DNA of 40,176 nucleotides from a virus. Location of the stretch: IMG/VR virus record IMGVR_UViG_3300028189_000548, positions 1-40,176 of that record, one strand, 5' to 3'. The position numbers were made by a program, and so were the translations under genes. The notes below the pieces were generated by a model, which was not told where the DNA came from, made no database searches, and worked only from the letters and a program-made list of their open reading frames with translations. Of the stretch, positions 4,698 through 21,702 are shown piece by piece. Numbering within the stretch: position 1 is the stretch's first letter; each line of letters begins with the position of its first letter.

Positions 4698-4745
4698 TTA
4701 ATTTCTTCCAAGTTTTATAATTTTTATTTTCACATCTATTTCCAT
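4698..4745 (-). other. 15-codon leader ORF abutting the clamp-loader start (TAA-ATG)
   Basis: ATG at 4745 with AGAGAG upstream; MEIDVKIKIIKLGRN-TAA is immediately followed by the ATG at 4697. Confidence 0.3.
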
Positions 4746-4792
4746 GTTATCTCTCTATAATAAGTATTATTCATAACATTTTTACAAATAAA

Positions 4793-6022
4793 TTAAATTA
4801 ATTTACGAAATACCCACGTTGGCTCTCCAAAACTTTTATCATCTTTGTTTTCAAGGGATTTTTCTGTCCATTTACTATCTTCGTAGCCTTTTGCCGTTCC
4901 AGCTCCACCAGAATTTGGTCTTTTTGCTAACTGGTAACCTATACACCCCATATATTCACTACCTTCTATTTCAGATAAATAATCGTTCATCGGGTTGCAG
5001 ATTTCTAACCAACCCTTTTTTGTGACCCCCTTTGTACCTGAATACACATCTGATATATTCACTAATAGATGACCTCCTGGTTTAATACTTGGCCAAATTT
5101 TACCGAGGGTGGCCTGTAGGAAATCTCTATTCCAACCTTCTATGTCTTTGTATCTGACCCAACTTTGAGTGTCATCGTAACTGTATCTCTCTACTGAAAA
5201 ATACGGTGGTGAAGTGAATACCACATCGAAATAGTCATTGAACTGAGTGAAGTCAAAATCTTCTGCTGGTGAGCAATGGAATTCTGACTTTCTCTCGTGT
5301 TCAAAATATCCTAAATGTTTTTCGTAGAACTCTGCCTGTTCTTTGTATATAGGATGGTTCTCTTTTCGTGGGTCTAAACCTACATAATGTTTTCCATAGT
5401 CACTGGCGTAAAATCCTGCCAATCTATCACCCCAACCAGCACTGAAATCAAGGATGGTTTCTGCCTTAAACATATCGTAGATTGCTTTTGCCACATTTGG
5501 TTTAAACTGGGAACAGATATATTTTCGTAGAGCTAACATTACTCGTAACGTTGACTTGTCCATCTTTGGAACTTTGAGTGAGTATGCACTTCCCATTAAT
5601 GAAGTCATAAACTTTTTACTTTCCCAAGTTCGTTTTGGACCTGGTGATACTGAACCATCTACTGACCATCTGTTTTCAATCTGGAAATAATTACTACAAC
5701 TATTTCCTACATTTAGTCGTCTAAACATTAACTGCTTTCCATCGTAGTTTAGATTATAACTATACTTGGTGCCCTCTCTTGCATACCACTCACCCTCTAC
5801 CATTATTTCATTCCACTTCATACCTTTTAGTTTTTGGAAATCTCTATATGCTCTCTTTTCGGTTAAATCAGGATATGGAAGTGGATATGTCATTGCTACC
5901 GTGGCAAGACTTTCTTTTACATCTTGTTTTTCAAATGTTTCTTTTATGTATTCCCAATCTTTCTCGTCTATTTTGAGATAGGGCTCCATATTGTAAAATT
6001 TGTCAAAGTAATCTATATACAT
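4793..6022 (-). CDS. SAM-dependent DNA amino-methyltransferase
   Basis: ILDFSAGWGDRL (motif I variant) and VFTSPPYF (motif IV, SPPY). Confidence 0.8.
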   Translation of the reverse strand: MYIDYFDKFYNMEPYLKIDEKDWEYIKETFEKQDVKESLATVAMTYPLPYPDLTEKRAYRDFQKLKGMKWNEIMVEGEWYAREGTKYSYNLNYDGKQLMFRRLNVGNSCSNYFQIENRWSVDGSVSPGPKRTWESKKFMTSLMGSAYSLKVPKMDKSTLRVMLALRKYICSQFKPNVAKAIYDMFKAETILDFSAGWGDRLAGFYASDYGKHYVGLDPRKENHPIYKEQAEFYEKHLGYFEHERKSEFHCSPAEDFDFTQFNDYFDVVFTSPPYFSVERYSYDDTQSWVRYKDIEGWNRDFLQATLGKIWPSIKPGGHLLVNISDVYSGTKGVTKKGWLEICNPMNDYLSEIEGSEYMGCIGYQLAKRPNSGGAGTAKGYEDSKWTEKSLENKDDKSFGEPTWVFRKLI

Positions 6023-9092: not shown

Positions 9093-10009
9093 TTAAAAAA
9101 ATCTTTCTATACTTTGTGCTTCATCTACTGGTTTACCCCAATCTAAACATTCATAAAATAGATTGAGTTTTTTAGTGAGTGCTCTATCATAGATTTTATC
9201 ATAATCCATATTATCTTCTATGAATTTCATAATCTCGGGTGGATCTTCATAACCTTTATATGCTACTACTGATAATCCTAATGAGTTATTCTTTAAATAT
9301 ACCCACCGGATTTTATCCCCATTACTTATAAATCCATATTTTTTATCTCGTTTGTAATATCGCAATAAATCATTATAACTTACTGCTGCCCTTACATGGA
9401 CTGGAATACCGTTCTTCAATACTGTAAATACTGAAGTATTTTCTTTGTCCTTTTTAATATATTTCTTAATTCCCTTTACACCGGTTGGAGAAGAAATATC
9501 ATCTAAATCTTTTAATCTCATGTTCTTCTTAAATCTGGTTATTCTATGGTCTATCTTATCCCGTGGAACACTTGCTAAAATGTCCTCTAATACATCGTTT
9601 AATAGTTTTCTAAATGCCGGTGCGAAATTACTACGTACAGTATCTAATCCCTTTACCATTGTCTTATTTACTTGAACTCCATTATCACTAATGAGTTTCA
9701 TACCATATCGTTTCTTTGTAATGAATAAACCAGACTTTGCTATAATTTCCTGTTTGATTTCAAATCGGTGTGTGTCTAAGTTACAGAATTTCTTAGCGAA
9801 ATAGTCGTATGAACCATTTAAGTATTCTTGAACTTCAGTTGCAATTTCATTTATTCGTTGAGTCATCATTACATCACTCAGGCTTTGACCTTTGAAACGG
9901 TGGTTAATGAGGTCTACAACTGATAAAAATATAGAATCAGTCAAGTGTCGACGTAGATAATTCTATCAACATCGAGATCTGGCTGCCTCCTTATTTGTTT
10001 TATTTTCAT
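9093..10009 (-). CDS. Family B DNA polymerase C-fragment, interrupted by a 5-nt insertion (9939-9943) in motif C
   Basis: ATG at 10009 gives MKIKQIRRQPDLDVDRIIYVDT-TGA; the -1 frame continues TDSIFLS...KKRY...KGLDTVRS. Removing 5 nt gives a 303-aa ORF with an intact YVDTDS. Confidence 0.85.
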
Positions 10010-18498: not shown

Positions 18499-19257
18499 TT
18501 ACCAGAAATTCTGATGTTGATTTCTATTTTTATCAATGACACCAAACTTGAATAATTTTTCTGTCGTAGCATGGGTATTTGTTGTATTCATTGAATTCGT
18601 GATATTCTTTTCCCAAATGCAACCAAAATCATCTGGGGCATTATATTCAGAAATAAATACATCATGTCCAATGTTAGTCATTTCTCTACACCATTGCCAA
18701 AAATTATCATGATCAAAGTTTTTAGAAGTCAAATACTGTTTTGTATTTTTATATGGTGGATCACAATATATTATACTATTATCTGGAATATTCATAACAT
18801 TGTAATTACCATCTACAAATTTAATATCTCGTATTTTATCAATTTGGGATTCTACATTCCGTATTTGTTCATTAATATAATTACGTCCAGTCTTTCCAGC
18901 CGAATGTCCACTGTATCCACCATCAAAAAATCTACCATTATAAGAAGCCATCCAACCAATCCAACCAATCATAAAATCATCAAATTCTATATTAGTGTTG
19001 TTATTAAATTCAACCCGTGCCTTTGAATATAATTCTTTACTAATAGTATTTGGTCGTTTTTTATTATCACAAAGACCTTTCCACATGGAAATTAAATATT
19101 TATTTTTATCGGAAGCCAATCTTTTACCACCGGCTTTATCTATAGTATTCAATCCACCACAAAAAGGTTCAACATACCATTGATTATCGGTTCTGTTTTT
19201 TAAAATGATAGGAAGTATATACTTTGCTATCCTATTTTTACTGCCCATATATTTCAT
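18499..19257 (-). CDS. DNA adenine methyltransferase (D12/Dam-like)
   Basis: MKYMGSK, YVEPFCGG, YCDPPY, FISEY. Confidence 0.9.
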   Translation of the reverse strand: MKYMGSKNRIAKYILPIILKNRTDNQWYVEPFCGGLNTIDKAGGKRLASDKNKYLISMWKGLCDNKKRPNTISKELYSKARVEFNNNTNIEFDDFMIGWIGWMASYNGRFFDGGYSGHSAGKTGRNYINEQIRNVESQIDKIRDIKFVDGNYNVMNIPDNSIIYCDPPYKNTKQYLTSKNFDHDNFWQWCREMTNIGHDVFISEYNAPDDFGCIWEKNITNSMNTTNTHATTEKLFKFGVIDKNRNQHQNFW

Positions 19258-20820
19258 TAAAAATATTCGTGTTCTACTAAATTATGAGGATTTTTTGCAT
19301 TCTCGATTCTAGCTTCCATTATTTTAAAATACTCTTTTTCTCTTTCGATAAGTATGTAGTTCCTTTCTGAAAACACACAAGCAATTCCTGTTGTTCCACT
19401 TCCTGAAAATGGATCTAATACCACATCACCTTTACGACTACCCAATGTAACTAAATAACTCATTAAGGTTACGGGTTTTACTGTTGGATGAATATTATTT
19501 TCCAATCCACTATTCTTTTCAGATTTACTCGCCTTTGGAACAATTAAAAATGGAAATGTCCGTTGTATTTCTTCTGGTAATTTCTTAACCCTATCTTCCC
19601 ACCAAGCATCTAAACTATAATATCTACTAAAATCTTTTTCTAATATATCATCACTTATTAATAGGTTTGCTGCAAATCTACCGAGTGGTGATGCTTCTGC
19701 TGTATCATTATTCTCTGACTTAAATCCACTTGTCTTAAATACATTATCGTCTGCTCGTGGTTGTCGTTTAGTGGTTTTTGGTTTTTGATAAGTTTCACTC
19801 GGGTTTAATTGTTTCATATCACCACTAAGAAATGTCTTTCCACCTTCATTTACTTTACCGATTGTTTTTGCACCACCGAATGACTGTTGTTTTTCTACAT
19901 ATTTATCGTAATCACTTTTAGATTTTCGTGATGGTTGATTTCCCCTTGATAATCCTTCTGCGTCAGTATCAAAGTTTTTCTGACTACCTACATTATCCTT
20001 ATTGTATTGTTCTAAATCTTTACTAACAGGTTTCTTAAATCCATAATTATATGTTCCACCATATTCTTTAGCATATACCGAACCTTCTTCTATGGAACTT
20101 CTTTCTGTAAATCCTTTTCTATCACTTTCATATTGTTCTGTATCACTCATTCCTGCAAATGGTATTCTACAATTATCCAACCAAGTGATCCCTTTTTGAT
20201 TATCAAGTGCTTGGTCTAAATAACCTTTCTTCTCTAATGGTTTCATTGCCACAATCACGACTTCTACTGCTGGTTTTGGTTGATATCCTGCATAACTTCC
20301 ATCAAGTTTCTTGGCTTCGTCTGACTTTGGTTCTGTTATATAACTTTCAACTCTTGGTCTATTACTTACAGTTTCACCACTCCAACCATCTTGACCTGTG
20401 TTTTCATCTCGGCGGATATCCGCATAAGTTCCTTTCTTTTTACCAATTACTTTCCGTTCCTTACCTAATCTTTTATCAACTGCCTTACCAATATTCATAG
20501 CCTTTGGAAAACCTGTAGCGTATGTCCAATAGATAGGTGAGAAACCAATTTGAAATCCAACTTCCTCTAACATTTGAACCATTCTGTATTGAACGTCACT
20601 TCTTGGAGCACTCATTACGAATGCAAATCCACCTGGTTTCAATACTCTCAATGACTCTTCAAATATCTCTTTAGGTGGCAACGTCTTATCCCAATCTTTA
20701 CCCATAAATCCATAGCTTAATTCAACCATACGGTGGATCTGTACATAACAAATCTACCGTATGATCGGCAATCTCCTTTAATTTTTCTATACTATCTCCA
20801 AGTAATAATTTACTTTCCAT
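19257..20820 (-). CDS. N4/N6 (beta-class) DNA methyltransferase interrupted by a 10-nt insertion (20715-20724) after DPPYG
   Basis: ATG at 20820 gives MESKLLLGDSIEKL...CTDPPYG-TGA; the +1 frame continues YGFMGKDWD...RVLKPGG...HPTVKP...VLDPFSGSGTT. Removing 10 nt gives a 517-aa ORF. Confidence 0.85.
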
Positions 20821-21435
20821 AATATTCATGTCCCCCTGGAACTTTGACTTTTTCCAATTATCATTTTCCATCATTTTTTTGATGGATTTTTTACTCATTA
20901 TTCTCCAACCATCCATATTGAAAGTTTTTATCACTTCTCCCAATAATTTCATCTGGTCTATACTAAATGCATGACCACGAGTTCTATTACATAACTCACA
21001 ACACACAACACAATTTTCTTTAATATGCCCTACATTATTATCTATTCTATCAAGTCCAAGAGTTTCTCTTTCACCACTTCCACAATAATAACACATTAAA
21101 TCATTTTCCATAATCTCACACATTTCATCAAATGTAAAATCTACTTCATCTCTTTGCCTATAACTGTTATATTTCCGTTTCCATATGTGTTTATATTTTG
21201 ACCAACCAGTACCTTCTCTCATCGGTGCAGTTAATCCTAATGATTGACCTTTATTTCTACATTCAACACTACAGAACTTTTTCCCATCGGCATGAGATGG
21301 ATATACTTTACTTACTTTACCACATAATTTGCACTCTACTTCTACTCTACTATCTTTCCCTTTATTCCACCCAGATCCCTTTTTTAGATTTTCCCAACTT
21401 GAGTTATATGTCTTTCTTTTATCTTCATTTCCCAT
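20722..21435 (-). CDS. His-Me/HNH-type endonuclease fused in frame to the methyltransferase N-terminal 32 aa
   Basis: CYYCG...GLDRIDN..GH...NCVVCCELCN motif; N-terminal CxxC...CSxxC zinc finger. Confidence 0.8.
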   Translation of the reverse strand: MGNEDKRKTYNSSWENLKKGSGWNKGKDSRVEVECKLCGKVSKVYPSHADGKKFCSVECRNKGQSLGLTAPMREGTGWSKYKHIWKRKYNSYRQRDEVDFTFDEMCEIMENDLMCYYCGSGERETLGLDRIDNNVGHIKENCVVCCELCNRTRGHAFSIDQMKLLGEVIKTFNMDGWRIMSKKSIKKMMENDNWKKSKFQGDMNIMESKLLLGDSIEKLKEIADHTVDLLCTDPPYG

Positions 21436-21519: not shown

Positions 21520-21702
21520 TTACTGGTCTCCATATAACCGTCTCCGTTTATCTTCTCTTTGTTTTTGTCGTTTTTTCTTTAAGTAACGATCCTTTGCCTG
21601 TTGTAATATCTTATCTTTGTTGCGTTGGTAGTGTTCCATCTGCCACTTTTTTTGAGCATCTTTTAACTCGTCTTTTGTTTTGTATATTTTCTTTCTACCC
21701 AT
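21520..21702 (-). CDS. Small basic protein (60 aa), paralog of 8095-8250
   Basis: MGRKKIYKTKDELKDAQKKWQMEHYQRNKDKIL...; shares MGRKK-x-x-x-T-x-D-E...Y...I with the 8095 ORF. Confidence 0.65.
   Translation of the reverse strand: MGRKKIYKTKDELKDAQKKWQMEHYQRNKDKILQQAKDRYLKKKRQKQREDKRRRLYGDQ

Follow-up and report, generated by a model that had tools for sequence, protein, structure and literature searches.

How is a phage DNA methylase made when its gene carries a stop codon directly behind the codons of a catalytic motif? The question is posed by a locus on the minus strand of a 40,176-nucleotide (nt) stretch of viral DNA, positions 1 to 40,176 of the IMG/VR virus record IMGVR_UViG_3300028189_000548 (hereafter the window), which is a 40-kb piece of an uncultured large phage and is approximately 19% complete. 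Within this locus, 10 nt that include a stop codon separate the DPPYG motif of an N4/N6 DNA methyltransferase from the remainder of the enzyme. Drawing on comparisons with related genes, we propose that these 10 nt are a programmed translational bypass gap, or stop-hop, carried by a mobile HNH-endonuclease cassette, a reading to which we assign a probability of roughly 0.57.

A stop-containing gap directly behind the catalytic motif

Read along the minus strand, to which all coordinates of the locus refer, the codons GAT (20739–20737) CCA CCG TAT and GGT (20727–20725) are followed directly by TGA (20724–20722), ATT, AAG and a single C, after which TAT (20714–20712) leads into GGA TTT ATG GGT AAA. 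Two open reading frames (ORFs) meet at this point: ORF A (20722..21435, 237 aa), which has the C-terminal end ...LLCTDPPYG and then TGA, and ORF B (19257..20729, 490 aa), which opens with MVELSYGFMGKDWDK in the +1 frame relative to ORF A and matches the N4/N6 DNA methyltransferase family PF01555 (E 1.2e-25). Taking out the 10-nt gap (20715..20724; TGAATTAAGC) yields DPPYGYGFMGKDWD, encoding DPPYG-YGFMGKDWD. In all 78 uninterrupted relatives on viral contigs, the distance from DPPY to FMG is exactly 21 nt, with no gap. A preliminary description made from the window sequence had reported a 10-nt stop-containing insertion right after DPPYG, which is present on the minus strand and recurs in independent contigs, and had proposed that its deletion restores the usual DPPYG-x-x-FMGK spacing, with which the homologue alignment agrees.

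The interrupted gene comprises an N-terminal exon of 35 residues (20725..20829; MNIMESKLLLGDSIEKLKEIADHTVDLLCTDPPYG), starting at ATG 20829–20827 and aligning with the N-termini of intact homologues, and a main exon (19257..20714) that resumes at TAT 20714–20712 (YGFMGKDWDK...) and ends with a stop at 19259–19257. The N-exon ATG is preceded by AGGGGGA (20837–20831), a run that reads like a ribosome-binding site. Both hallmarks of the β-class enzymes of PF01555 are present—DPPYG (motif IV) in the N-exon and DPFSGSGTT (motif I) in the main exon—and hundreds of full-length homologues are collinear with the window methylase once the gap is removed. The main exon shows no further lesion across 1.46 kb. 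Reassignment of the stop, with TGA encoding an amino acid, was considered and rejected: TAA follows eight codons on in frame 0, and the window is densely coding under table 11. There are no tRNA genes in the window, hence no phage suppressor or extra tRNA-Gly is encoded there.

Recurrence in diverged methylase genes

Viral and metagenome contigs were scanned for patterns encoding DPPYG and then a stop, and hits were kept where a methylase motif came after it; this identified 66 distinct interrupted methylase contexts representing 36 gap types. Many hits to the TGAAT pattern in metagenomes lay outside methylases by chance and were excluded by demanding a downstream FMGK or TTACKWD motif. Gap lengths of 5, 6, 8, 9, 10, 11, 13, 14 and 15 nt occur, and the frame offsets 0, +1 and +2 are all represented; examples are GGC[TGAGGC]ACT, GGT[TAGGA]ACT, GGC[TGAATGGC]CTT, GGT[TGAATAAATTGGC]TAT and GGT[TGAATGGA]TAC. 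The interrupted genes span at least three methylase subfamilies, termed YGFMGK (that of the window), LEFMGK and TTACKWD after their post-gap residues, and intact DPPYG-TTACKWD genes are abundant. The codon before the gap, which we term the take-off codon, is GGN in 36/36 types (GGT in 21, GGC in 13). A stop stands immediately 3' of this Gly codon in every type, which is partly a product of the search design (TGAAT scans), but TAA and TAG cases also turned up (TGA in 29 types, TAG in five, TAA in two). At the other end of the gap, the final codon is GGN in 29 types, AGN in six and GTT in one, set against a chance frequency of 1/16 for GGN.

At least five diverged genes on independent contigs have the exact 10-nt gap of the window in an identical position: the window methylase, L134, the set L105/L092/L093/L155, L100 and L177 (L-numbers denote related loci on other contigs; L092–L177 come from marine and freshwater datasets). 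Furthermore, the 120 best-matching protein homologues include many independent metagenome genes, with identities as low as 53%, that are annotated as starting with MVELSYGFMGK or MGK and are therefore cut at the same spot. The gap of L085 is 13 nt long with UAA in the +1 frame, while that of L096 is 8 nt and needs a +2 shift; given these varied offsets, neither read-through nor any single frameshift fits the set. A hop from a Gly codon to a Gly-like codon would explain every interrupted case. For the window, the proposed landing codon is AGC (20717–20715), so that the pairing with the take-off GGU is imperfect, as the preliminary description had recognised. The mismatch stands, and since five unrelated gap types end in AGY, some of them without any other in-frame Gly codon, it appears to be a used solution rather than a flaw.

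One metagenome contig (L180) carries two interrupted methylase genes, with gaps of 5 nt (TAGGT) and 8 nt (TGAATGGC). At L106, the interrupted methylase is preceded immediately by an intact paralogue. Among TTACKWD genes, the 9-nt in-frame gaps read UGA-AUH-GGN and vary at two third positions only (AUA, AUC or AUU, never AUG).

Coding constraint downstream of the gap

Codon comparisons indicate that the sequence beyond the gap is maintained as protein. Across 37 sequences of the TTACKWD subfamily, the ten post-gap codons show 2657 synonymous versus 857 nonsynonymous pairwise codon differences, with T-T-A-C-K-W-D kept, and in the printed examples the first Met comes 13–17 codons after the gap; on codon evidence, the downstream part is thus probably translated from the landing point. 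The ATG at 20729, which opens ORF B in the window, is replaced by ACG in L100, L177 and L085, therefore re-initiation there is not conserved. Among interrupted genes dN/dS ranges from 0.22 to 0.49, and their downstream ORFs are open for 395–485 aa, some ending only at the contig edge. Pseudogene-like decay, named beforehand as part of what would overturn a bypass, was not seen in these genes.

RNA signals upstream of the gap

A Shine-Dalgarno (SD)-like AAGGAG (20773..20778) lies 5 nt 5' of a predicted 45-nt hairpin (20723..20767) with a 12-bp outer stem (20767–20756 with 20734–20723) and a 7-bp inner stem. The 3' strand of this hairpin includes the codons for Asp-Pro-Pro-Tyr, then GGU as the take-off codon and the first two letters, UG, of the stop. 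For a 96-nt RNA containing the hairpin, the minimum free energy (MFE) is -27.4 kcal/mol (z -3.56), and 0/200 shuffled sequences were as stable; RNAalifold yields a fold identical to the MFE hairpin. Across interrupted genes of the YGFMGK type, the ten core pairs are paired in all cells of the alignment, versus 20–50% when the partners are slid. One core pair switches from A-U in five sequences to G-C in three, changing the upstream His to Cys while the Tyr codon changes silently from TAT to TAC. The LEFMGK subfamily has an equivalent hairpin (CGUAGGGAG/CUCCCUACG), 99% paired and with one compensatory pair, which changes the usual ...SVD... into ...SVG...; the arms of the YGFMGK hairpin (AUCAUACGGU/ACCGUAUGGU) differ from it in their letters and form the same kind of structure.

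These signals distinguish interrupted from intact genes. AAGGAG is invariant in 8/8 interrupted YGFMGK-type sequences, and an SD-like motif at that distance is present in 20/25 interrupted versus 6/57 intact FMGK-type genes. The complete tract of AAGGAG with a hairpin 5 nt later is common to all interrupted YGFMGK-type genes and L197, and is missing from intact genes. The segment from -50 to +2 has a median MFE of -24.2 kcal/mol in 25 interrupted genes versus -7.2 in 56 intact FMGK-type genes (p 1.5e-10), a comparison in which G+C content also partly differs (0.53 versus 0.40); a stem score of at least 20 is reached by 84% of interrupted and 0% of intact FMGK-type genes. A search of the TTACKWD subfamily for the same upstream hairpin and SD motif found them in 0/38 sequences; the signals are therefore specific to FMGK-type genes. 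Rfam returned nothing relevant around the gap site at E<=1. The nascent chain of the window methylase ends in ...TDPPYG, as in every other case, which is uninformative on nascent-peptide stimulation because TDPPYG is the catalytic motif itself.

The initial suggestion of a bypass-type element is strongly favoured in its core by the 36 gap types, the RNA signals and the adjacent HNH gene, whereas its structural detail requires revision. The hairpin previously drawn with the insertion at its apex is absent from both the MFE and the RNAalifold folds and is not conserved; its outer stem, GAUCC/GGAUU, also occurs in intact genes and is missing in L085. The conserved structure is instead the 45-nt hairpin upstream of the gap, which reaches its end at the take-off codon.

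Turning to single loci, L085 (a YSFMGK gene) and L197 (LEFMGK) have 13-nt gaps that match letter for letter (TGAATAAATTGGC) and agree as well in the SD motif and in the letters of the outer stem, while the interior of the hairpin and all flanking coding sequence differ. This likeness could reflect either the transfer of a very short segment or selection on the signal elements alone.

Association with HNH endonuclease genes

Upstream of the methylase N-exon, and fused to it in frame, lies a coding region resembling HNH endonucleases and endonuclease VII (20830..21435). The first 200 residues of ORF A match PHROG families annotated as endonuclease VII (1.3e-9) and HNH endonuclease (3.4e-9 and 1.1e-8); the region matched no Pfam family. 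Its candidate catalytic motif reads C..C...LDRIDN...N..VCC..CN, with Arg at a position that is often His in HNH proteins. The N-exon has this gene immediately 5' to it in the window, L134 (a near-identical copy) and L085, with the homologue in L085/L023 occupying the same place at 73% identity over 83 aa. By comparison, the 78 intact FMGK loci all lack this gene within 3 kb. TTACKWD genes have a different HNH gene as their immediate upstream neighbour at 20/30 interrupted versus 0/105 intact loci. A strict link between HNH gene and gap was rejected, as several gapped loci have no HNH gene.

The history of the genes is similarly patchy. On a tree of main exons, the gap state needs at least five changes (gains or losses), forced by well-supported branches: the window methylase and L134 are sister to the intact L012, L105 is sister to the intact L006, and L096 is nested among intact genes. 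The N-exons of gapped genes are more alike than their main exons. Nucleotide identity between the window methylase and L096 is 83% in the N-exon and 62% in the main exon, whereas with L012—its nearest non-gapped relative on the tree—the values are 72% and 85%. The N-exon signature LKEI.D[HC]TVD occurs in interrupted genes only. From HNH co-occurrence, the patchy tree and the similarity of the N-exons, the HNH gene, replacement N-exon, signals and gap therefore behave as a mobile cassette.

L082 (about 4733–5640) and L243 carry a decayed methylase N-terminal remnant (...LILTDPP...) upstream of the HNH gene and an intact N-exon with gap downstream of it, and we therefore take the cassette to have inserted in the methylase 5' region, bringing its own replacement N-exon. 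The window HNH ORF has no stop of its own and runs in frame through the methylase N-exon to the TGA of the gap; ribosomes that hopped after translating it would yield an HNH-methylase fusion. The HNH ORF of L085, by contrast, terminates at a stop of its own and overlaps the start of the methylase in a different frame.

A proposed bypass and its relation to known systems

We propose the following sequence of events. Ribosomes would read the N-exon, starting either at ATG 20829 or within the in-frame HNH ORF, as far as ...DPPY-GGU, and would pause when GGU occupies the P site and UGA the A site. Peptidyl-tRNA-Gly may then let go of GGU while the mRNA slides by approximately 10 nt, aided by refolding of the 45-nt hairpin behind the ribosome: with half of the hairpin outside the ribosome, its zipping could pull the mRNA forward by about the length of the 3' arm. 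The AAGGAG at the foot of the hairpin may anchor the mRNA on the anti-SD sequence. The tRNA would re-pair with AGC, matching at two of three positions, and decoding would restart at UAU, giving a single chain ...DPPYG-YGFMGKDWD... of about 520 aa that is predicted to be an active N4/N6 DNA methylase. As to origin, a cassette of HNH gene, replacement N-exon and gap may have invaded the conserved DPPYG-coding DNA, and by analogy with T4 mobA/gene 60 the gap probably also destroys the target site of the nuclease itself, conferring self-immunity.

In its logic, the proposed bypass resembles T4 gene 60 with MobA. There, too, a Gly take-off codon has a stop directly 3' and translation resumes after a matching or near-matching codon (bioRxiv 10.1101/2022.08.31.505936; PMC5009743), an HNH gene lies just upstream, and the element supplies a replacement N-terminal piece followed by the gap (bioRxiv 10.1101/2022.08.31.505936); both systems involve mobile, repeated insertion into a conserved enzyme gene. 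A role in gene 60 bypass has been proposed for pairing of exiting mRNA (bioRxiv 10.1101/2024.12.09.627546), with which the mechanism proposed for the window agrees. The differences are considerable. The gene 60 gap is 50 nt long, compared with 10 nt in the window and 5–15 nt in the methylase family, and because 10 nt leaves no room, the methylase gap holds neither a take-off stem-loop nor an SD motif; in the window MFE fold the take-off codon pairs with upstream sequence, in place of the gene 60-type stem-loop, which is built from the take-off codon together with the 5' portion of the gap. The SD-like motif of the window lies 5' of an upstream hairpin, its landing codon is imperfect (AGC, 2/3 positions), and no KKYK-type nascent-peptide signal is evident, a feature for which no dedicated test was made. 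The host gene (a DNA methylase) and the nuclease are also different, without sequence similarity or an Rfam match.

The bypass proposed for the large-terminase genes g6/g7 of Streptomyces phage phiHau3 shares a short gap, Gly take-off (GWG|N), a slow A-site codon, and a 5' stem-loop with a flanking SD motif (PMC10732093). Its published layout corresponds to that of the window, with a 10-nt gap, GGU, the hairpin at 20767–20723 and AAGGAG at 20778–20773. In phiHau3 the 5' stimulators are proposed, and the junction peptide was detected by mass spectrometry in E. coli, whereas the window bypass is a proposal from sequence comparison; the A-site codon is the rare sense codon UUA with a proposed regulatory role, and no homing endonuclease is mentioned (PMC10732093). 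The phiHau3 type occurs in a handful of terminase genes, compared with a broad family across methylase lineages here. Laboratory stop-hops in E. coli (Weiss et al. 1987, per PMC5009743) likewise involve a peptidyl-tRNA that unpairs and re-pairs further 3', at a distance of a few to tens of nt, over a stop, but were synthetic and of low efficiency, and no natural in-frame stop-hop is known according to the same review (PMC5009743). The mitochondrial byps of Magnusiomyces capitatus resemble the methylase gaps in hopping over an unused codon and in tolerating imperfect take-off/landing matches, and differ in being 27–55 nt long, mitochondrial and seemingly context-independent. Full-text literature searches turned up no account of a bypass in a DNA methylase or at a DPPY motif, and blastn of the locus against cultured phages returned no match.

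Evidence against a programmed bypass and alternative explanations

Several observations weigh against a programmed bypass. The landing codon of the window, AGC, is not a Gly codon, and a true Gly codon, GGA, lies 6 nt on and in frame, because of which the exact hop product is uncertain; furthermore, the +1 frame of this gene is open and contains an ATG. The duplicated Gly codon at the gap end could be a by-product of insertion, if the DPPYG-stop of the cassette was placed before the Gly codon of the recipient; that diverged genes keep GG while the third base is free to vary favours selection on the landing codon without amounting to proof. If the mobile cassettes are young, the intact ORF and low dN/dS would largely reflect history before invasion. 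The upstream signals are not universal, since TTACKWD genes carry gaps without hairpin or SD motif, and the UGA-AUH-GGN pattern of that subfamily could also fit X-Ile-Gly made by UGA read-through. A role for an SD motif 46 nt upstream of the P site is conjecture. L092, L096, L100 and L177 have the gap without an HNH gene, having perhaps lost the nuclease or never had one. Finally, tblastn found only relatives below 60% identity, with no cultured system or annotated precedent.

Among the alternatives, we consider it unlikely that no single chain is made and that the insertion is a homing-endonuclease scar or self-immunity mark. The methylase would then be dead, or produced as a 35-aa N-peptide and a C-fragment starting from ATG 20729 or from the Met of FMGK. 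HNH cassettes are selfish and do not need a functional host gene, a recent invasion would leave the ORF intact, and ATG 20729 starts a 490-aa ORF of the kind that gene callers annotate; re-initiation at this position, raised in the preliminary description, accordingly stands as a formal option in the window and fails in the three relatives with ACG. A cut within the catalytic loop after DPPYG, in motif IV, is unlikely to leave an active enzyme. The printed TTACKWD examples have no start codon for 13–17 post-gap codons, yet those codons are constrained at the amino-acid level, and a dead gene would have no use for a co-varying hairpin that costs residues (D to G in SVG, N/S to H/C-T), for the SD motif, or for the conserved GG at the gap end. 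We regard as less probable again a bypass that lands on the alternative codon GGA (20709..20711) and resumes at UUU, skipping 13 nt plus GGA to give DPPYG-FMGK, two residues short of every homologue. GGA is in the correct frame, and its first two positions would pair, which is also true of the landing codons used most often in the family (GGA in 13/36 types). Set against this are the two residues found between G and F in 78/78 intact relatives, the AGY-ended gap types, which include TTACKWD loci L089, L154, L242 and L246 with no later in-frame Gly, and L096 and L085, which share the cassette signals and land so as to keep YG or YS.

Slightly more doubtful still is a prfB-like programmed +1 frameshift at GGU-UGA, which would insert three residues to give DPPYG-ELS-YGFMGK. 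Shifting by +1 is classically stimulated when a stop occupies the A site, and the window gap is of length 3n+1 with an open +1 frame, so that the shift suggested in the preliminary description is formally possible in this one gene. It fails in relatives with the same upstream signals, where the +1 frame meets UAA (the 13-nt gap shared by L085 and L197) or the gap is 8 nt long (L096). The prfB-like combination of a slippery P-site codon, an SD motif about 3 nt upstream and a +1 frame open in relatives is lacking: re-pairing from GGU to GUU is poor, and the SD motif lies 46 nt upstream instead of 3 nt. The shift would, moreover, add three residues to the catalytic loop, where no homologue has any. 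A sequencing or assembly error, or random pseudogenisation, might be suspected because the source is a single metagenomic contig, but is highly improbable: the identical gap is seen in diverged genes and recurs across samples in many independent assemblies, and 1.46 kb is devoid of any other lesion. The programmed bypass from GGU to AGC is our preferred reading.

A second candidate site and wider significance

The family B DNA polymerase (PolB) gene in the same window contains a comparable arrangement at its DTDS motif (9936–9992, minus strand): TAC GTC GAC and ACT (9946–9944) are followed by a 5-nt gap, TGACT (9943–9939), and then by GAT TCT. The candidate take-off and landing codons form a perfectly matched ACT/ACT pair, AAGGAGG is present at 9992–9986, and a hairpin of -20 kcal/mol (z -3.17) completes a layout like that of the methylase site. 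Because the PolB gene carries ACT-[TGACT]-GAT together with AAGGAGG and a hairpin, these sequences suggest that the phage uses the hop device more than once.

More broadly, we tentatively entertain, at odds somewhat short of even, that phage DNA methylases host a large natural family of programmed stop-hops of 5–15 nt, in which a nuclease cassette delivers a portable recoding module that keeps the invaded gene functional. The module would comprise an SD-like anchor, a hairpin refolding behind the ribosome, and a stop with a Gly take-off codon before it and a Gly-like landing codon after it. Natural bypassing is known from very few systems, namely T4 gene 60 and its homologues, the byps of yeast mitochondria and a candidate among the terminases of Streptomyces phages; were the family real, bypassing would be a recurrent mobile-element solution in conserved catalytic motifs rather than a T4 gene 60 oddity, and the PolB DTDS site would be a 5-nt version of the same module. 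Homing endonucleases could in this way settle in the best-conserved section of an enzyme gene and leave that gene alive. The micro-gaps would also form a ready mutational series, with variants in length, stop, landing codon and presence of hairpin or SD motif, which could probe the control of peptidyl-tRNA take-off, sliding and landing and whether refolding of exiting mRNA drives forward movement. Phage methylases of this kind would be mis-annotated, because gene callers split or truncate interrupted genes.

Neighbouring genes

Downstream of the interrupted methylase lies a second, Dam-like methylase (18499–19257, minus strand; PF02086, E 9.8e-15), which starts at 19257, the last base of the stop codon of the interrupted gene. 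Because of this overlap, the two genes are probably co-translated. On the upstream side, between a FEN/RNase H-like gene and the methylase, a conserved and very basic 60-aa ORF (21520–21702, minus strand; MGRKK...WQM.HY.RNK...) occurs in the window, L092, L093 and L096. Only in the window and L085 is this ORF separated from the methylase by the HNH gene.

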